From: Dehalococcoidales bacterium
Lineage (GTDB): Bacteria; Chloroflexota; Dehalococcoidia; Dehalococcoidales; RBG-16-60-22
Reading direction: 5' to 3'
NCBI GenBank assembly: GCA_028714335.1
Contig: JAQTMM010000002.1
Location: 1 to 60,841 of the forward strand
Length of the DNA: 60,841 bases
The translations under genes were made by a program, and so were the position numbers. Shown here in pieces: positions 3,065 through 47,662 of the stretch. The stretch's first letter is position 1. Each line of letters opens with the position of its first letter. The notes beneath the pieces were generated by a model, which saw nothing but the letters and a program-made list of their open reading frames with translations, was not told the DNA's origin and did no database searches.

Positions 3065-4507
3065 ATGATTTTTACTTCATGGTTTTTTATAATATTTTTA
3101 GTAGCAGTATTAGCCGCCTATTTTGCTCTCAGCCGATGGTGGCGGTGGCAAAATGTCCTGCTTCTTGTGGCTAGCTACGTCTTCTATGCCTTCTGGGACT
3201 GGCGTTTTCTAGGGTTACTCATTGGCATGACCCTGGTCAACTATCTTGCCGGCGGAGCGATTAGTAGAGCATCGCGGCTTGACGGAATTGCCGCTACCAA
3301 TAGGAAGCGTTTATGGTTGGGTTTGGCGATTGCCATTGATTTACTGGTACTGGCGACTTTTAAGTACTTCAACTTCTTTGACACCAGCTTCGTAAATTTC
3401 TTTGCTCTCTTCGGCATCCACTTTGATATCGTTAGCTTGAATATCATCCTACCGCTCGGTATCTCCTTTTTTACCTTTATGGCTATCACTTATCCTTTTG
3501 ATATCTATCGCGGAAAGTTAACTCACACCAAGCACTTACACGATTTCGCCCTCTTTGTTGCCTTCTTCCCCACCATCGTCTCTGGTCCGGTCGAGCGGGC
3601 TTCTCATATGTTGCCACAGTTCCAGTCGCCCCGTCAGGTGACCAGCGAGAAAGTTGATGAAGCCCTGTGGCTCATTATTTGGGGCTTCTTCCAAAAACTC
3701 GTTATCGCTGATAATATCGGGCTGATTGTCAATCAAGTTTTTAACAACTATACCCAGTATCAAGGCCTTGACATCATCATTGCTCTTTTAGCTTTTGCCG
3801 TACAAATTCTAGCTGATTTTAGTGGTTATACAGATATCGCTCGAGGCATCGCACGTCTCTTGGGCTTCGACCTCCTGCTCAACTTTAATGTACCCTATTT
3901 TTCCATAAATCCCTCTGATTTCTGGTCGCGATGGCATATGTCGCTTTCTCAATGGTTCCGCGATTACCTTTATATACCACTGGGAGGTAACCGTAAGGGG
4001 AAATGGCGTACCAGCATTAACTTATTTATCACCATGGTCATGGTCGGTTTGTGGCACGGGGCTGCCTGGACTTTCGCTATCTGGGGAGCCTGGAACGGAT
4101 TCCTTCTGGCGTTTTATAGGCTATTCGGAAAAGCCGGTCAAAGTACCGACCGCACTATTCGCGGTGTATGGTCTTTTCTCAGCGTTTTCTTCCGGACGGG
4201 TTTAATGGTAGTGCTGGTAGTCGCCGGCTGGGCAGCATTCCGGGCTACATCCTTCGACCAATTGGCTTATCTGTTCACTAAAATGGGTTTTTCTACATCA
4301 AGTACTACCCTGGACTCGCTTTGGCACCTTTTCGCTTTTGCGCTCCCGCTAATAGTCGTACAAATTTTGCAGCTGCGCCCCGGTTTTACGTCATTTTTAA
4401 CAAAGCTCAACCCTGTTGTAAGAGGCCTGGTCTATGGTATCCTAATTGTCGGTATAATCATCTTCGGCCAGCATGAATTTAGTCGCTTTATCTATCAGGG
4501 GTTTTAG
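3065..4507 (+). CDS. MBOAT family O-acyltransferase (AlgI/DltB/PatA-like)
   Basis: 480 aa and polytopic. It has the conserved MBOAT His region (FWSRWHMSLSQWFRDYLYIPLGGNRKG) and a later WHG motif. Confidence 0.9.
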   Translation: MIFTSWFFIIFLVAVLAAYFALSRWWRWQNVLLLVASYVFYAFWDWRFLGLLIGMTLVNYLAGGAISRASRLDGIAATNRKRLWLGLAIAIDLLVLATFKYFNFFDTSFVNFFALFGIHFDIVSLNIILPLGISFFTFMAITYPFDIYRGKLTHTKHLHDFALFVAFFPTIVSGPVERASHMLPQFQSPRQVTSEKVDEALWLIIWGFFQKLVIADNIGLIVNQVFNNYTQYQGLDIIIALLAFAVQILADFSGYTDIARGIARLLGFDLLLNFNVPYFSINPSDFWSRWHMSLSQWFRDYLYIPLGGNRKGKWRTSINLFITMVMVGLWHGAAWTFAIWGAWNGFLLAFYRLFGKAGQSTDRTIRGVWSFLSVFFRTGLMVVLVVAGWAAFRATSFDQLAYLFTKMGFSTSSTTLDSLWHLFAFALPLIVVQILQLRPGFTSFLTKLNPVVRGLVYGILIVGIIIFGQHEFSRFIYQGF

Positions 4508-4510
4508 AAA

Positions 4511-6193
4511 ATGTCACAGGATACACATAACGAGTCCGAGAATATTTATAATACGCTCTTACTTTATTTGAAAGAAGGTATGTGGAAAAGTGCTATGACG
4601 GAAGCCAATAGCTTGGCGGCTCGTCATCCCAAAGATAAAGTATGTGTGGAATTGGCTCAGTGTCTGCGTGTAATAAAAAGAATTGCAGATCGTTTACCGA
4701 CCGGTACTAGATCTGGCGACATTGATAAATTAGAAAAAATTGAACACCTCCTGCCCGAATTATCGGGAATGGATTCATACCGATCCCTCAAAACACTGGT
4801 CAGTAAATCGATACAGAAACCAGTTCGGACCCTTTTTAAAAAATTAAAAATATGGCGAGTAGTCATCTCCTGCCTTGTCGCTATCGTCTTTATTCTTGTG
4901 TGCAATACCGCCGTATACGCCTACAATCAAGCGCAGCCTATGGTTACCAAGTCGGGAACAGATGGGCCTTATCGATCATGGGTTGCGCTTCAAAATCTGG
5001 ATAAACCTGTTGATGTATTATTACTGGGAGACTCAGCTTGCCGTTATAATTTGGCATGGGGCGCGATAGCTGACAGGTTGGGGGGAGAGGTCATTAATTT
5101 AGCGAACAATATATATTCGTCTTTTTTGTCAGACGCCTGGATGCTGGCAGCCTATATTGAAAAGTTCGGCGCCCCGAAAACCGTTATCGTTTCACGTACT
5201 TCATCTGGCTATTCCTCTCTCCACAAAGTTGAATTTGTCGTTGGTGTTCCCCTTCCCTGGGCATATTGGGACTATTACGGGTTGGCACCAAGCTGGAAAA
5301 GGGGAGAAATCAGCGAAGCCTTTATAACTAAATTCGGCGTATTGTATTCCTATGCCGACATTTTACAGGAACGTCTTCTGGAGCCTTGGACTTTATTTGA
5401 CCATGAAGTCGCTCCCAGAGTCACTTCTCATACCTACTACGAAGGAGACCCGTCCGAACAACAGGATATGGATGTTAGTACACGCACACCGAGTTACTAC
5501 TTCCATGATTTCGACACTTGTGATGATACTGAGGCCTCTTTGCAATACATGTCTGATTTAGCTAGACAATACCATTTTCAACTCTATTTTGTCCTGCAGC
5601 CCGATTGGGATGAAGCTGTCCAGGCAGGCTTACGTGATGAAATTATAACGGAACAGAAAGAGTTTCTGTCACAGTATACCGACCCCACCTATGTCCACGT
5701 CGTAGAGCAGCTGCCAAAGACCTTATTCCGGCAGGACCAATTGAAAAATCCCAACCACCTGCGTCCAGCCGCATCAGCAATTTATACCGAAGAAGTTGTA
5801 AACGCCATTGCCAATATTCAAAATCAACAAACAGCCGGGCAGGCGCAGCCCTTGGAGTTGACTTCTATATCTCTTGATAAAGGATCTTACTCACTGGCAG
5901 AGAAACCGGTTATTAAACTAAAAATTGTGAATAATGGTGCCAGCGCCGTTACCGGGAGTGTGTCTTGCCTGATTAAGCCCGTAGGCGTTGAGGATGCTTA
6001 TTGGGTAGCTCGTGGGCCGGCCATAGCAATGAACATTGCGGCTAACGGTGAGGTTGAGATTACTCTAGAAGCCTCTGCAGGTGAATTGACTGAATCCGGC
6101 ACTTATGAGTTGGTGGTATTTATTCGCCAGGACATCGGTGGGCTTTTTTATGAAACTCGGATTGTCATGTCGAGTAAAATCATCGTACATTAA
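4511..6193 (+). CDS. Membrane-anchored extracytoplasmic protein with SGNH/AlgJ/DltD-like block and a C-terminal beta-sandwich (CARDB-like) domain; putative partner of the MBOAT
   Basis: The gene starts 4 nt after the MBOAT stop codon. The protein has a helical N-terminal region of about 110 aa and a single TM helix (IWRVVISCLVAIVFILVCNTAVYAY). It then shows VLLLGDSACRYNL (a GDS block I-like motif) and a later NPNHL. The C-terminal approximately 100 aa look like a CARDB-type repeat (PVIKLKIVNNGASAVTGSVS...GTYELVVFI). Confidence 0.5.
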   Translation: MSQDTHNESENIYNTLLLYLKEGMWKSAMTEANSLAARHPKDKVCVELAQCLRVIKRIADRLPTGTRSGDIDKLEKIEHLLPELSGMDSYRSLKTLVSKSIQKPVRTLFKKLKIWRVVISCLVAIVFILVCNTAVYAYNQAQPMVTKSGTDGPYRSWVALQNLDKPVDVLLLGDSACRYNLAWGAIADRLGGEVINLANNIYSSFLSDAWMLAAYIEKFGAPKTVIVSRTSSGYSSLHKVEFVVGVPLPWAYWDYYGLAPSWKRGEISEAFITKFGVLYSYADILQERLLEPWTLFDHEVAPRVTSHTYYEGDPSEQQDMDVSTRTPSYYFHDFDTCDDTEASLQYMSDLARQYHFQLYFVLQPDWDEAVQAGLRDEIITEQKEFLSQYTDPTYVHVVEQLPKTLFRQDQLKNPNHLRPAASAIYTEEVVNAIANIQNQQTAGQAQPLELTSISLDKGSYSLAEKPVIKLKIVNNGASAVTGSVSCLIKPVGVEDAYWVARGPAIAMNIAANGEVEITLEASAGELTESGTYELVVFIRQDIGGLFYETRIVMSSKIIVH

Positions 6194-37410: not shown

Positions 37411-38352
37411 ATGCCGGAAGAAGTTGCCCCGCGCGAGGTCTTCGGTAAGACATTAGTGGAACTGGGGAAAGAGAATCCCGATATCGTCGTGCTGGACGCC
37501 GACCTTTCGCCTTCCACTATGACCAAGTATTTTAAGGAAGCTTATCCGGAACGTTTTATCGAGGTCGGTATCGCCGAGGCGAATATGATAGGCATCGCCG
37601 CCGGTTTGGCGGCTAACGGCAAGATACCCTTCGCCAGCACCTTCGCCGTCTTTGCCACCTCCCGCTGCTTTGACCAGATACGTGTCTCGGTGGCGCAATC
37701 CAAGCTCAACGTTAAGATAGTCTCTACCCACTCCGGCCTCTCCGTGGGCGAGGACGGCGCGTCCCACCAGGCTTTAGAGGACCTGGCTTTAATTTGTTCC
37801 CTCCCCAACTTCACCGTTATAGTCCCTGCTGATGGCGTAGAAACCGCCCAGGTCATCCGCGCTGTAGCCGCCCATAACGGCCCCTGTTACATCAGGTTGA
37901 TTCGCGGCAAATCTCCGGTTGTTTTCGATGACAATTATAAGTTCCAGATTGGTAAAGCCGCTTTAATGCGTCAGGGTAACGACGCCACGATTATGGCCAT
38001 TAGCACGATGGTCGCCCCTGCTTTAGAAGCCACCAATGCCTTAGCGAGTGAAGGGATAAAATGCCGCGTGCTAAACATGTCCACGCTTAAGCCGATTGAT
38101 GTTGATGCAATACTTAAAGCCGCGAAAGAAACCGGCGGTATCGTTACTGCGGAAGAACATCAGGAACACGGAGGCTTGGGTAATACCGTCGCCAGAGTTT
38201 TAGCGGAACAATACCCCACCCCTATGGAACTCGTCGCGGTGAAAGATAAGTTCGGTATGTCCGGCAAACCCGCTGAGCTTTTAGAGCGTTACGGCCTCAC
38301 CGCCAAAGACATTGCAGCAGCCGTGAAAAAAGTCATTAAGAGAAAAGTTTAA
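37411..38352 (+). CDS. Transketolase, C-terminal (pyrimidine-binding) subunit
   Basis: 313 aa with GIAEANMIGIAAGLA and EDGASHQALEDL motifs. It starts 1 nt after the N-terminal subunit stop codon. Confidence 0.9.
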   Translation: MPEEVAPREVFGKTLVELGKENPDIVVLDADLSPSTMTKYFKEAYPERFIEVGIAEANMIGIAAGLAANGKIPFASTFAVFATSRCFDQIRVSVAQSKLNVKIVSTHSGLSVGEDGASHQALEDLALICSLPNFTVIVPADGVETAQVIRAVAAHNGPCYIRLIRGKSPVVFDDNYKFQIGKAALMRQGNDATIMAISTMVAPALEATNALASEGIKCRVLNMSTLKPIDVDAILKAAKETGGIVTAEEHQEHGGLGNTVARVLAEQYPTPMELVAVKDKFGMSGKPAELLERYGLTAKDIAAAVKKVIKRKV

Positions 38353-38358
38353 TATTTT

Positions 38359-38709
38359 GTCATTCCAGCGCAGGCTGGAATCCACTCTAGGCAATAATGT
38401 TATACAGGTCTTTCCAGTCTGGATTAGCTTCTTCGATTAACCTTATCTTCCAATTACGATGCCAGACTTTTAACCGTTTTTCTCTCTGAATCGCCGATTC
38501 AATATTTTCACATTGTTCGTAAAAAACGAGCATATGTACGCCATACTTTTTGGTGAATCCTTCAACGAAGTCATTTTTATGTTCGTAGACTCTTTTCACA
38601 AGGTCGTTTGTAACACCTATATAAAGAGTCCCATGTCGTTTACTTGCTAATATGTAAACGTAATATGACTTCACTTTCAAAAGTAGATTCTGGCCTTCGC
38701 CAGAATGAC
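38359..38709 (-). mobile_element. GIY-YIG mini-element A: single small GIY-YIG gene bounded by hairpin-forming inverted repeats
   Basis: The left end is GTCATTCCAGCGCAGGCTGGAATC (38359-38382). The right end is GATTCTGGCCTTCGCCAGAATGAC (38686-38709). The two ends are inverted copies of each other, and each folds into an 8-bp hairpin. Differences between the ends are compensatory within the stems. Confidence 0.5.
38387..38680 (-). CDS. GIY-YIG nuclease family protein (small YhbQ/UPF0213-like)
   Basis: 97 aa with the segment YYVYILASKRHGTLYIGVTNDLVKRVYEHK...REKRLKVWHRNWK. Confidence 0.85.
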   Translation of the reverse strand: MKVKSYYVYILASKRHGTLYIGVTNDLVKRVYEHKNDFVEGFTKKYGVHMLVFYEQCENIESAIQREKRLKVWHRNWKIRLIEEANPDWKDLYNIIA

Positions 38710-38717
38710 ACCTGCCC

Positions 38718-39200
38718 TTAGTCCAACGCGGTAATCGTCGTCGCGGGCCTTTCCTTCATCTCCACTTTTATCCCCGCCTCCTTAAAAAGCCCGATAAACG
38801 TATCGTCGTCGTATTTTCCAAAACTCACAAAGCGCGCTATCTTGGCGTTGACCAGCATCTTGGCGCATAAAACACACGGCGTGTGCGTGCAGTAAACGGT
38901 GCTGCCCTCTAAACTTACGCCGTGCAGCCCCGCCTGAATAATCACATTCTGCTCGGCATGGATGGCGCGGCAGATTTCCTGCCTCGTCCCCGATGGTATT
39001 TTCAGTTCGTCCCTGATGCATCCCAGCTCCAGACAGTCTTTAGCCCCCGCCGGCGCCCCGTTATAACCAGTCGTTAAAATATGTTTATCCCTTACCGCTA
39101 TCGCCCCCATGTGGTGCCGCAAACACGTTGACCGCTCCGCCACCACCGAGGCTATCTTTAAAAAATACTCGTCTATATCCGGGCGCTTTGGTGTCGTCAT
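38718..39200 (-). CDS. Deoxycytidylate (dCMP) deaminase, ComEB-like
   Basis: 160 aa with the zinc motifs HAEQNVI and PCVLCAK. Confidence 0.85.
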   Translation of the reverse strand: MTTPKRPDIDEYFLKIASVVAERSTCLRHHMGAIAVRDKHILTTGYNGAPAGAKDCLELGCIRDELKIPSGTRQEICRAIHAEQNVIIQAGLHGVSLEGSTVYCTHTPCVLCAKMLVNAKIARFVSFGKYDDDTFIGLFKEAGIKVEMKERPATTITALD

Positions 39201-39739
39201 CTCAACCTCGCTACAATTCTTTCTACCTGTTTCCTTAAATCGCTGATGGAGCCTGTATTCAGTATTGTAAAATCCGCCATGCAGATAGGCCCGCCCTTGT
39301 TCAAATTTTCTATCTCTGCGCGGTCGCGGCTAACGGCCTGCTGCAGCGTTAGTGGTCGGTACTTACGGTTCACCAGCCGTTTATACCTGTCCTCCGGCGA
39401 TGCCCACACCGCTACCACCATAAATTGGTTTTTATAATAATCCTTTAGATAAATGTACTCCTCCCACGAGTAAAGCCCATCCACCACTACATTACGGGTT
39501 TTGAGCGCATCATCTATCTTGGGCACGCTCAACTTGGCGTATGCCGCCATGCCGTGCTCCTGCCGGATGCGCTCCCTGACCGGCCTCTCGTTTTCCTCTG
39601 ATAAAGGTAGCCCCTGCTGCTTGACGGCTTCGTCGGTGATTTCTCCAAAGCGCACCGTCGTGTAGCCTTTGGCGTTGAAAAAACGCGCTATTTCCGACTT
39701 CCCTGACCCTGTCATTCCGACTATTGCTACAATCTTCAT
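39197..39739 (-). CDS. P-loop nucleotide/nucleoside-monophosphate kinase-like protein
   Basis: Walker A motif VGMTGSGKS. I prefer the start MKIVAIVG at 39739. It lies 6 nt downstream of a TATAAT hexamer with a TTGTCA 18 nt further upstream, which suggests a possible leaderless mRNA. The gene overlaps the dCMP deaminase gene by 4 nt. Confidence 0.6.
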   Translation of the reverse strand: MKIVAIVGMTGSGKSEIARFFNAKGYTTVRFGEITDEAVKQQGLPLSEENERPVRERIRQEHGMAAYAKLSVPKIDDALKTRNVVVDGLYSWEEYIYLKDYYKNQFMVVAVWASPEDRYKRLVNRKYRPLTLQQAVSRDRAEIENLNKGGPICMADFTILNTGSISDLRKQVERIVARLR

Positions 39740-39841
39740 ACCGTCATTATAAGGCGTTGCGCCCATAAATGACAATGACAATTTTCGGCATTTTTGGATA
39801 AGCACGCAGGTTTTTAAACTTGGTATAATCTAGTTGCTGAT

Positions 39842-45198: not shown

Positions 45199-45468
45199 GG
45201 CCGTGCATCCCATCCTCGACTTTGACTAACGGCTTGCCCGGGCCAGCCGGCTCCAGCCAGGCTAACCTGCGGCACCCAGAATATACTATTTACCGCTGCT
45301 TCCTCTCGGACCTCACGGGGTTCATAGCGATCTGCCGCGCAGGACCCAGCCTTCAACGCCACTTAACCAGGGCAGTCCCACCAGACAAAAGCCTCAAACA
45401 GGCTTTCGACCCTGCTATAGCGGATTTCAGGTACAGGGCACCGCTGGCTCCCCATCTAGCACGACCTC
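45199..45468 (-). ncRNA. ffs: Signal recognition particle RNA, large (Bacillus-type, with Alu domain)
   Basis: The minus strand reads GGUCGUGCUAGAUGGGGAGCCAGCGGUGCCCUGUACCUGAAAUCCGCUAUAGCAGGG at the 5' end. Further in, it shows the domain IV motif GGUCCGAGAGGAAGCAGC with a GAGA (GNRA) tetraloop. The 5' GGUCGUGC pairs with the 3' GCACGGCC to close the molecule. The ends are approximate. Confidence 0.8.
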
Positions 45469-45781: not shown

Positions 45782-45810
45782 GAGATTCTTCGTTACGCTC
45801 AGAATGACAG
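45782..45810. repeat. Solo degenerate copy of the GIY-YIG element end repeat
   Basis: GAGATTCTTCGTTACGCTCAGAATGACAG resembles the right end of element A (GATTCTGGCCTTCGCCAGAATGAC) but has a decayed stem. No GIY-YIG gene is attached. Confidence 0.35.
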
Positions 45811-45879: not shown

Positions 45880-46392
45880 TTAAGCCAACAGGTTCTTTTC
45901 CAGTACTTTTTGAATTTCTTCAGGGTAGCTGGCTACTATGAAAGGATCGAGATACGGCAAATACTCCATTTGACGTGAGTGCTCCATAAACGCAAAACCG
46001 CACCGGTGATGCCCCCGACAGTTATCCTCGCCGCAGCGGCATTCCCATTCTTTGCCGAACATATTACATAAACTGTACTCCAAAGTGAGTTCCTCATTTT
46101 TGGCAATATCGCATATAGCGATACAGTACATTGCCTTGTTGACGGTATAGTAAAACATGTTCGGCCGGCAGGAATGATTAAAGTAGCGGTACGGCTCGGC
46201 GAGTAATAGTGTCTCACCGTCGGGGGCATAGTGGCAATGGTAATACATCTCACCCTGGGCAGGGTCGAGCGGATGCTCTTTAGTGACGGTTCTGGTGATT
46301 TCTACTTTGCAGACAACCGAGTGCTTACGAATCGTTTTGGTGGTAAAGACGCCTTTACCATTGATATTAGAATCCCTTAGCTCAAGAGACAT
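45880..46392 (-). CDS. SET domain protein (putative protein-lysine methyltransferase)
   Basis: 170 aa with GKGVFTT, RYFNHSCRPN, NEELTLEY and a post-SET-like CRCGEDNCRG. The gene is visibly AT-rich compared with its neighbours. Confidence 0.85.
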   Translation of the reverse strand: MSLELRDSNINGKGVFTTKTIRKHSVVCKVEITRTVTKEHPLDPAQGEMYYHCHYAPDGETLLLAEPYRYFNHSCRPNMFYYTVNKAMYCIAICDIAKNEELTLEYSLCNMFGKEWECRCGEDNCRGHHRCGFAFMEHSRQMEYLPYLDPFIVASYPEEIQKVLEKNLLA

Positions 46393-46489: not shown

Positions 46490-46531
46490 CTACTTCCCTG
46501 TCTCCAGCCGCATAATCAATTGCAGCGGCAG
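46490..46531. repeat. Direct repeat copy 1 (duplicate of the 3' end of the metallophosphoesterase gene)
   Basis: CTACTTCCCTGTCTCCAGCCGCATAATCAATTGCAGCGGCAG matches 46931-46972 at 41 of 42 positions. Confidence 0.85.
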
Positions 46532-46543
46532 CCTAGACAATAG

Positions 46544-46922
46544 GTCATTGCGAGTCCTTCTTAAGAAGGACGTGGCAATCTCCATTTCAGTTTTACATCC
46601 ATTCTTCGGATAAATTACGCCAATTCGGATTTATTGTAGTAATTAATGCTACCTTTGCTTCTCTCGACCAGCTTTTTATTTGCTTTTCTCTTAGAATACA
46701 ACTCTCAATACTTTCGCCTGTTTCATAATAAACAAGTTTATTAATGTTGTATTTGGCTGTAAATCCTTTAACCAATTTATGTTTATGTTCATAGATTCTT
46801 CTAATTAGGTCATTAGTTATAACTGTATAGGTAACCGTATTTGTATCATTAGTCATGATATACACGTAATATTGCCTATTCATAGATTGAGATTGCCACG
46901 TCACTACGTTCCTCGCAATGAC
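46544..46922 (-). mobile_element. GIY-YIG mini-element B: small GIY-YIG gene bounded by approximately 37-bp inverted repeats
   Basis: The left end is GTCATTGCGAG-TCCTTCTTAAGAAGGA-CGTGGCAATCTC (46544-46582). The reverse complement of the right end (46889-46922) is GTCATTGCGAG-GAACGTAGTGA-CGTGGCAATCTC. The termini GTCATT/AATGAC are shared with element A. Confidence 0.55.
46593..46883 (-). CDS. GIY-YIG nuclease family protein (small YhbQ/UPF0213-like), copy 2
   Basis: YYVYIMTNDTNTV...NDLIRRIYEHK...REKQIKSWSREAK. I prefer the ATG at 46883 (MNRQYYVY). The ORF-track GTG at 46904 lies inside the terminal repeat. Confidence 0.85.
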   Translation of the reverse strand: MNRQYYVYIMTNDTNTVTYTVITNDLIRRIYEHKHKLVKGFTAKYNINKLVYYETGESIESCILREKQIKSWSREAKVALITTINPNWRNLSEEWM

Positions 46923-46930
46923 AGACTTGT

Positions 46931-46972
46931 CTACTTCCCTGTCTCCAGCCGCATAATCAACTGCAGCGGCAG
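46931..46972. repeat. Direct repeat copy 2 (the functional 3' end of the metallophosphoesterase gene)
   Basis: CTACTTCCCTGTCTCCAGCCGCATAATCAACTGCAGCGGCAG encodes the last 13 codons plus the stop codon of the CDS at 46931-47662. Confidence 0.85.
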
Positions 46973-47662
46973 GCCCGCCTGCGCCATCTTATCCTGCACG
47001 GAGCGCACGTCGTACTCCACGCGGTAAAATCGTAGGAAATGGTCGTCGGTGTCGTAAATAACGTAGCTAGCGCGCGGGTCGCCGTCCCTGGGCTGCCCCA
47101 CCGCCCCCGGATTGATTATCGTCTTTTCATCGCTCAAGAGGAATCCCTTGTTCGCCATAATCATCGGCGCCGATATTTTTTCCGGTTCCTGACGGAAGAC
47201 CGCCGGCGCGTGCGTATGCCCCACCAGGCAATACTTCGTATCGAAAAAGTTAAAGTTCCGCTCGGCGTTGCCGGTGGAGATGATGTATTCAAAAAGCGGC
47301 GAGGCCGGGCTGCCATGCACCAGCATAAAGTCGCCGATTTGCGCCTCTTCCGGCAGCTTTCCCAGGTAAAGCATGTCCGCCGCGCTTAACTTATCCATCG
47401 TCCACTCTAAAGCCATCGCCGCGAAGGGGTTGAAGTTTTGCATTTCTATTTGCCCAATAGCCCCCCGGTCATGGTTGCCTGCCACGCATACGCCGTCCAG
47501 CTCCTTGACGAGCGCAATGCACTCGGCGGGTTCCGGCCCGTACCCCACAATGTCCCCGAGGCACCATATCTCGCCTACCGCCCCTTGCCTGGCGGCGTCT
47601 TTCAGCACAGCCTCGAGCGCCGTCAGGTTGCCATGTATGTCCGCGATGATTAAGTACCGCAT
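46931..47662 (-). CDS. Metallophosphoesterase (YfcE/MJ0936-like)
   Basis: 243 aa with the motifs ADIHGN, GDIVGYG, GNHD and GHTH. Confidence 0.85.
   Translation of the reverse strand: MRYLIIADIHGNLTALEAVLKDAARQGAVGEIWCLGDIVGYGPEPAECIALVKELDGVCVAGNHDRGAIGQIEMQNFNPFAAMALEWTMDKLSAADMLYLGKLPEEAQIGDFMLVHGSPASPLFEYIISTGNAERNFNFFDTKYCLVGHTHAPAVFRQEPEKISAPMIMANKGFLLSDEKTIINPGAVGQPRDGDPRASYVIYDTDDHFLRFYRVEYDVRSVQDKMAQAGLPLQLIMRLETGK

Follow-up and report, generated by a model that had tools for sequence, protein, structure and literature searches.

Small single-domain GIY-YIG proteins of ~94 amino acids (aa) have been described as the Ssn family, whose genes are flanked by an oriented hairpin (Chenal et al., Nat Commun 2025; PMC11893778). 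The hairpin is named NTS in Neisseria (CGTCATTCCCGCGMAVGCGGGAATCYRG) and, more generally, SRM. According to the same study, SsnA of N. meningitidis binds this hairpin as single-stranded DNA (ssDNA) only and on one strand only, cutting a few nucleotides 5' of it. The GTC ahead of the stem is critical for cutting and the C behind the stem for binding; the residues mutated were Y6, Y17, and E64. SsnA does not bind RNA, and the characterized Ssn members leave double-stranded DNA (dsDNA) uncut. Binding of ssDNA and cleavage 5' of the motif were reported for four Ssn homologues, and in N. meningitidis SsnA lowers the integration of NTS-bearing transforming DNA about five-fold. Its authors likened the NTS-ssnA-NTS layout to insertion sequences (IS) and REP/RAYT, raised autonomous mobility as a hypothesis only, and handled Ssn (cd10448, GIY-YIG_unchar_3) as a family of its own, apart from UPF0213 (PMC11893778). 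Here we analyze a 60,841-nt stretch of contig JAQTMM010000002.1 from a Dehalococcoidales bacterium (the window), which has two loci of this type, element A at 38359–38709 and element B at 46544–46922.

Every testable defining feature of the Ssn/SRM family is present in element A. We consider it very probable (roughly 85%) that element A is an Ssn/SRM module, consisting of a small GIY-YIG nuclease gene with inverted, inward-pointing cognate hairpins on both sides. The gene, ssn-A (38387–38680, minus strand), encodes a single-domain GIY-YIG nuclease (Pfam GIY-YIG, E 3.6e-15). The domain spans residues 6–79, and the sole other Pfam match, T5orf172 (E 3.2e-4), covers the same residues. The open reading frame (ORF) has 97 aa when counted from a TTG and 95 aa from a GTG at 38674, the likely start; 95 aa is the commonest length among homologues. 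The protein lies within the Ssn size range of roughly 90–100 aa and has no extra domain. The Neisseria reference used here was the N. gonorrhoeae SsnA orthologue (94 aa; Y6, Y17, E64), not the N. meningitidis sequence itself. Pairwise alignment gave 60% identity (E 1e-39, 113 bits), and a tblastn search of the chromosome gave E 2e-28. Residues Y9, Y20, and E67 of ssn-A align with the catalytic Y6, Y17, and E64 of SsnA. Homology to Ssn is defined in PMC11893778 by E < 1e-10 to Neisseria SsnA, and both ssn-A and the gene of element B, ssn-B, have values below this.

The best sequence match of ssn-A in the PDB, the UPF0213 protein BH0048 (1zg2), is marginal (E 0.003, 20.9 bits); this search returned no Ssn structure and a UPF0213 match only. 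NCBIfam, PADLOC, and PHROGs gave no match above threshold, and an exact-protein look-up found no record. The preliminary description of this DNA had labelled the protein YhbQ/UPF0213-type, and ssn-A is far nearer to SsnA (113 bits) than to the UPF0213 structure (20.9 bits), and the label is not supported. It had also regarded the locus as an unnamed class of mobile element, a view superseded since Chenal et al. (2025; PMC11893778) described the Ssn/SRM system with its NTS-ssnA-NTS layout.

The ends of element A are inverted copies of each other, and each gives an 8-bp hairpin. The 24-nt ends are GTCATTCCAGCGCAGGCTGGAATC at 38359–38382 and GATTCTGGCCTTCGCCAGAATGAC at 38686–38709 (reverse complement GTCATTCTGGCGAAGGCCAGAATC), with the stems ATTCCAGC and ATTCTGGC. 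With their immediate flanks, they form one SRM on the 3' side of ssn-A (38358–38385, plus strand, TGTCATTCCAGCGCAGGCTGGAATCCAC) and one on the 5' side (38683–38710, minus strand, TGTCATTCTGGCGAAGGCCAGAATCTAC), both pointing into the gene. The published SRM pattern, HGTCWYN(0-2)YYVSBRHN(0-5)WNVSBRGN(0-2)RNCYNB, has exactly two matches in the 60.8-kb window, namely these ends; dinucleotide shuffles gave a mean of 0.39 matches. GTC stands ahead of the stem and C behind it at both ends. DNA folding gave −7.7 kcal/mol for each end, with z scores against shuffles of −4.4 (38359–38382) and −4.1 (38686–38709). Five positions differ between the ends (8, 9, 13, 18, and 19). Pairs 8/19 (C-G versus T-A) and 9/18 (A-T versus G-C) are compensatory, and position 13 lies in the loop. 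The preliminary description had reported the inverted 8-bp hairpins, with four of five differences as paired stem changes and the fifth in the loop, and a small GIY-YIG ORF between transketolase and dCMP deaminase genes; sequence, coordinates, Pfam match, and neighbors all agree with it. The neighbors are the C-terminal subunit of a split transketolase (tkt, 37411–38352, plus strand) and dCMP deaminase (dcd, 38718–39200, minus strand), and ssn-A sits where their 3' ends converge.

A scan of one genome per species was used to ask how general this arrangement is. It yielded 80 ssn loci (L numbers below stand for loci of this and other scans) in relatives at 60%–91% protein identity, including Dehalococcoidales, Zixibacteria, Omnitrophota, Bradyrhizobium, Saccharibacteria, Nitrospirales, Bacteroidetes, and others. 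A hairpin was counted when GTCA, an arm of at least 6 nt, a loop, the complementary arm, and C occurred within 160 nt of the ssn gene. Inward-facing hairpins were found upstream in 55 and downstream in 63 of the 80 loci, and outward-facing hairpins in 14 and 21, respectively. At distances above 400 nt from the gene, these loci have a background rate of 0.126 per kb, which gives a ~70-fold enrichment. The motifs accompany ssn genes irrespective of the neighboring genes.

Covariation among these motifs indicates that structure is conserved. Across 34 distinct 24-nt SRMs, 99.3% of cells pair, double changes occur at all eight stem pairs, and none of 500 shuffles equaled this. The selection rule fixed the outer five pairs; the inner three were free and still have 16, 6, and 4 double changes. 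Non-palindromic GTC...C flanks give the motif an orientation, and its covariation as DNA holds for both strands. With a covariance model of the 34 SRMs, the 5' and 3' ends of element A have 39 and 38.7 bits (E ~1e-5), and the third-best match in the window (45784–45808) has 15.3 bits and E 0.46. These results bear out two earlier proposals, that selection acts on the structure of the hairpins and that hairpins and small GIY-YIG genes are associated, and they supply the covariance model of the termini that had been suggested. The two observations named beforehand as able to overturn the idea, generic REP-like palindromes with no link to GIY-YIG genes and a gene always in place in relatives, do not apply; the second is taken up with the tkt/dcd junction below.

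The third-best match is a solo SRM on the minus strand (GTCATTCTGAGCGTAACGAAGAATC), also seen in the pattern scan. It is probably degenerate, with no stable fold predicted, and a near-identical type occurs at the tkt/dcd junction of L005. It lies between a large bacterial signal recognition particle (SRP) RNA (45201–45464, minus strand, 183.8 bits), which was alone in passing the Rfam gathering scan, and a gene for a SET-domain protein (45880–46392, minus strand), both situated between the two ssn modules. Another palindrome, at 39743–39779, reads GTCATTATAAGGCGTTGCGCCCATAAATGAC followed by AATGAC. With its GTCATT start and AATGAC end it looks like two facing SRM heads; its position is upstream of where the gene at 39197–39805 probably starts. 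It may be a relic, a terminator, or a product of chance.

Several points weigh against the assignment of element A to the Ssn/SRM family as described, or complicate it. The cut position differs among Ssn homologues, and stem changes that preserve the hairpin abolish the activity of N. meningitidis SsnA (PMC11893778). As the ends of element A differ at two stem pairs, a single Ssn protein may serve them unequally. Among 61 units examined, the arms differ between the two ends in 49. The covariance model found no dispersed cognate A-type sites within the window, which therefore shows no sign of a genome-wide network of targets. Gonococcal NTS motifs point outward, whereas those in the window and in most of the 80 loci point inward; motif orientation therefore varies within the family. 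The gonococcal arrangement is seen in L165 (NZ_CP119140.1, 1881663–1883144), an ssnA orthologue with a reverse NTS at 480–506 and forward NTS at 901–927 and 966–990; PLSDB, in passing, lists 2.17-Mb Neisseria gonorrhoeae chromosomes as plasmids.

The difference between the ends is itself conserved. ATTCTGGC upstream and ATTCCAGC downstream are kept in the closest copies, L001 and L085 (both 91% protein identity), L002 (89%), and L144 (84%), and L090 (74%) has ATTCCAGC downstream and ATTCTGAC upstream, one further changed pair. Recent drift was ruled out as the source of the compensatory differences in element A because the same upstream/downstream asymmetry occurs in L001, L002, L085, and L144. 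The arm difference is a conserved feature of the A subfamily, and either one protein tolerates both end variants or the ends have different roles.

The second locus, element B, had been noted in the preliminary description as a GIY-YIG ORF with hairpin termini at the same coordinates, and the sequence agrees. Its gene, ssn-B (46593–46883, minus strand; Pfam GIY-YIG, E 7.9e-12), is a divergent Ssn paralogue of 96 aa when counted from the likely start, an ATG at 46883; the mechanical ORF runs from a GTG at 46904 (46593–46904). The protein is 44% identical to Neisseria SsnA (E 1e-28) and 48% identical to ssn-A. It retains the corresponding Tyr, Tyr, and Glu, with YTV replacing YIG, and by protein homology it is an Ssn member. 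The termini of element B are GTCATTGCGAG and CTCGCAATGAC. On the 3' side of ssn-B is an extended SRM (46544–46580, plus strand; fold z −4.6) of the form GTCATTGCGAG-[nested hairpin]-GTGGCAATC, in which a 5-bp ATTGC/GCAAT basal stem carries an inner hairpin of 7–9 bp. The SRM on the 5' side (46891–46922, minus strand, GTCATTGCGAGGAACGTAGTGACGTGGCAATC) has a weak predicted fold (z −0.9). Owing to the nested hairpin, the flanks fall outside the published SRM pattern, and the frame GTCATTGC...GCAATC is common to both. The extended type also occurs in L167, where the ssn-B orthologue is about 83% identical, as counted from two translations.

Element B lies beside a duplicated gene end. A 42-nt sequence at 46490–46531 copies the 3' end of a metallophosphoesterase gene, stop codon included, with 98% identity to the genuine end at 46931–46972. 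The gene (46931–47662, minus strand) encodes 243 aa, the length of nearly all listed relatives. The same gene end is duplicated around the orthologous ssn-B unit in L167 (about 3180–3232 and 3649–3701). In L166, a 66-nt duplication of this end (3166–3232 and 5476–5543) surrounds an unrelated two-gene cargo of 2.2 kb with no ssn gene, and a solo B-type hairpin occurs further downstream. The 42-nt repeat was considered as an insertion scar of element B and rejected as proof of insertion because L166 has a duplication of this kind around its cargo. It follows that the gene-end duplication either predates the ssn unit or is independent of it. An unrelated bacterium (L151) has a 26-nt gene-end duplication around its ssn unit; among 61 units, a duplicated gene 3' end was found in element B and L151 only. 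With the duplication seen in three lineages, the metallophosphoesterase 3' end resembles a conserved hot spot for insertions, delimited by a gene-end repeat. Element B itself is vertically inherited: it keeps its site in a relative in which the neighboring protein is only 70% identical.

The site of element A was compared with 80 metagenomic loci picked solely for a close dCMP deaminase (76%–91% identity). None of the 80 has an ssn gene at the tkt/dcd junction. The junction is empty in six, where the stop codons of tkt and dcd overlap (CTAG; L011, L012, L021, L024, L026, and L063), and near-empty in three more, where the stop codons lie within ~15 nt (L015, L017, and L046). Empty-site alleles, for which the preliminary description proposed to look, thus exist, with nine loci empty or near-empty, and presence of the gene at this site is polymorphic. 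Relative to the empty junctions, the whole insert spans 38353–38717 and consists of 5–6 nt, SRM-ssn-SRM, and 7–8 nt, with a possible 3-nt TAA duplication. Inserts other than ssn occur at the junction in seven of the 80 loci, L005 and L020 among them. Solo SRM-like hairpins are present there in L005, the closest relative. L020 has three SRMs, two of which form a pair without a gene that is almost the same as the two ends of element B. Unrelated inserts of 0.45–0.83 kb after the dcd match were observed in L007, L016, L010, L013, and L019; those of L007 and L016 are alike, and L013 and L019 have a small-protein gene in common. Insertion at the convergent tkt/dcd junction is not particular to ssn; the junction is a hot spot for inserts in general.

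The module as a whole occupies different sites in different lineages. At least three contexts were found for SRM-ssn-SRM: tkt/dcd (window), Fer4/PrpD (L001 and L002), and leuC/leuD (L003). When element A is compared with six copies in other contexts, nucleotide homology begins at 38710 for four of them, at 38711 for L090, and at 38713 for L086, and it ends at 38346–38359. These boundaries show that the ssn gene evolves together with its two hairpins as a single unit, placed differently across lineages. The copies are ancient, with no sign of recent jumps because the synonymous divergence (dS) between copies in different contexts is saturated (1.6–2.0).

By analogy with the characterized homologues, Ssn-A would bind a flanking hairpin when it is single-stranded, on the strand reading GTCAT-stem-loop-stem-ATC, and would nick a few nucleotides 5' of GTC. 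The predicted nicks lie just outside each end on opposite strands, at about 38354 (plus) and 38714 (minus). They would fall in the 5–8 nt between hairpin and neighboring stop codon, near the insert borders at 38353 and 38717. Since the motifs face inward, each strand would be cut once, at its 5' end, and no strand would be excised by that alone. Such nicks might copy the unit and its hairpins (a REPIN-RAYT-like spread), trim ssDNA for the host (as in Neisseria), or do both. In terms of the REPIN concept, a gene-hairpin unit of variable location, with gene-less hairpins and doublets, works like a REPIN-RAYT pair in which a GIY-YIG nuclease replaces the HUH nuclease.

What the module is for admits several readings. 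It is quite possible, at somewhat less than even odds, that Ssn is a domesticated host system for trimming or restricting ssDNA in transformation, conjugation, replication, or repair, with the flanking hairpins as relics or a means of self-control. The five-fold effect of SsnA on NTS-bearing transforming DNA in Neisseria is a precedent. Purifying selection on both genes is very strong. The ratio of nonsynonymous to synonymous substitution rates (dN/dS) is 0.03 for ssn-A against copies elsewhere and about 0.003 for ssn-B, where dS is likewise saturated. Vertical retention of element B agrees with such a role, as does the excess of SRMs over ssn genes in relatives (281 kb of DNA from the dcd relatives contains one ssn gene and about 24 SRMs). 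A host role is harder to reconcile with the window, where Ssn-A has no strong cognate sites other than its own flanks, leaving few local targets, and with the absence of the gene from the junction in all 80 relatives, which makes it dispensable there.

A further reading, which we regard as doubtful, is that SRM-ssn-SRM is a self-mobilizing IS-like transposon that nicks both its ends and moves through a single-stranded or hairpin intermediate, with the doublets as non-autonomous derivatives. It is an extension of the Ssn/SRM assignment and compatible with it. The conserved unit runs from SRM to SRM (with small overhangs in some copies), and the multiple contexts and empty sites are as a transposon would leave them. 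Gene-less inward-facing doublets occur in five loci among the dcd relatives, namely L020, whose pair matches the ends of element B, and four more. One metagenome-assembled genome (MAG) has two ssn loci (L149, 1314–1884; L154, 1313–1884) that are 95%–97% identical over ~570 nt, the L149 copy having an in-frame TGA. Protein identities of 60%–75% across distant phyla suggest horizontal spread. The unit boundaries, empty sites, doublets, and this one intragenomic duplicate at 96% identity are compatible with autonomous mobility.

Other observations fit such a transposon poorly. Copies in different contexts have dS values of 1.6–2.0, element B has stayed at one site in a relative with a 70% identical neighbor protein, and no consistent target-site duplication was found in 61 units. 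A repeat of the 42-nt type also surrounds the unrelated L166 cargo, and inward motifs, cutting each strand once at the 5' end, would not give the strand excision of IS200/IS605. The L149/L154 homology continues for 150 nt past the upstream hairpin and takes in a 100-nt module that is tandemly repeated in L154. Long flank repeats around units are mostly repeated hairpin modules (L094, L095, L111, L122, and L156). Each module consists of a reverse hairpin, a 50–100-nt spacer, and a forward hairpin, and lies on both sides of ssn; the arrays are reminiscent of BIME-like arrays or a tandem duplication of the unit. Our literature searches found nothing on Ssn mobility following PMC11893778, and the autonomous mobility of SRM-ssn-SRM is unproven. 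Unlikely in our judgment is the more specific proposal that the module moves autonomously by a transposition chemistry of a GIY-YIG ssDNA nuclease that is so far undescribed in bacteria, with the doublets as REPIN-like offspring and the differing hairpins as left and right ends.

It is very improbable that the hairpins act on the flanking convergent genes as terminators or as regulators at the RNA level, with the nuclease gene unrelated to them. The upstream hairpin and the following CTACTTTTGA were flagged as terminator-like, and the Rfam small RNA (sRNA) model FtrB contains the same hairpin. However, the hairpin at 38359–38382 was not flagged, and the three terminator-like matches in the region are near the shuffle mean of 1.0. 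The orientation by GTC...C flanks and the covariation as DNA on both strands also speak against an RNA-level signal, as does the lack of RNA binding by SsnA (PMC11893778), and the same motifs flank ssn genes whatever the neighbors. The match to FtrB (Francisella sRNA B, RF02748) covers 38338–38402 (plus strand) at 29.4 bits, below the gathering score of 66. The FtrB consensus includes an SRM-type hairpin (GuCauuCcCGCGuAGGCGgGaauC), and what this sRNA family models may in part be an Ssn motif at the DNA level.

Scarcely credible is a free-standing homing endonuclease (I-TevI/Seg type) that cuts the dsDNA empty allele and is inserted through repair, the hairpins being incidental: the GIY-YIG fold, a weak match to TIGR01453, the model for group I intron endonucleases, the intergenic position, and the polymorphic site would suit it, but the match has 22.8 bits against a cut-off of 56.05, ssn-A at 97 aa has no DNA-binding domain and is too short for a second domain, there is no intron or phage context (a phage collection gave one weak match), characterized Ssn members do not cut dsDNA (PMC11893778), and the hairpin association is too strong for coincidence.

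Element A contains nothing categorically new; outside Proteobacteria, it exemplifies the Ssn/SRM module in a clean and compact form. Possible additions to the published account (PMC11893778) are that inward motifs predominate, that the ends are usually non-identical, and that an extended motif type exists, together with two orthogonal pairs within 8 kb and the empty sites and gene-less doublets in Dehalococcoidales relatives. Two divergent pairs with natural empty sites and doublets make a convenient test case for distinguishing self-moving from host-kept modules. With their distinct hairpins, ssn-A and ssn-B are also candidate orthogonal sequence-specific ssDNA nucleases, an application proposed earlier for the family (PMC11893778).

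Among described systems, an IS200/IS605 element and a homing endonuclease gene were each rejected as the identity of element A, and a YhbQ-type protein is not supported. GIY-YIG homing endonucleases combine the nuclease with a C-terminal DNA-binding domain, whereas ssn-A has no second domain. UPF0213/YhbQ (BH0048, PDB 1zg2) is alike in fold and approximate size and differs in that the sequence similarity is marginal. IS200/IS605 elements share hairpin recognition in ssDNA with cleavage a short distance away, as would apply to Ssn-A by analogy. They use TnpA (Y1), whereas Pfam finds no TnpA in element A. Their two subterminal hairpins are different, lie on one strand, and come without terminal inverted repeats, whereas the ends of element A are inverted copies whose predicted cuts, on opposite strands, would not excise a single strand. 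The dRS3 repeat of Neisseria, ATTCCC-N8-GGGAAT, corresponds to the palindromic core of this hairpin motif (PMC11893778). It was described as a repeat for phage integration and recombination, without oriented GTC...C flanks or a linked nuclease gene, and its stem is different from ATTCCAGC and ATTCTGGC.

REP/REPIN-RAYT systems (Nunvar 2010; Ton-Hoang 2012, as cited in PMC11893778) are closer. They likewise have a single-copy nuclease gene between inverted cognate hairpin repeats, many gene-less intergenic repeats, often as inward doublets (here in relatives, with one weak solo in the window), and vertical retention under strong purifying selection. Element A works in a similar way without being such a system, because the nuclease there is an HUH Y1 transposase, whereas Pfam finds GIY-YIG and no HUH/Y1 domain in ssn-A. 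A covalent 5'-phosphotyrosine intermediate is therefore not expected, and strand transfer would need other factors. The Ssn/NTS-SRM system of Neisseria is nearest. The window differs from it in its Dehalococcoidales-like host, in showing no dense genome-wide motif population, in its two divergent paralogues 8 kb apart, each with its own motif type, and, for element B, in a nested-hairpin motif beyond the published pattern. The two are alike in a single-domain GIY-YIG protein of ~95 aa with the same catalytic residues and in motifs on both sides of the gene, and the element A motif, (Y)GTCAT-stem-GNAR loop-stem-ATCC, fits the published degenerate pattern.

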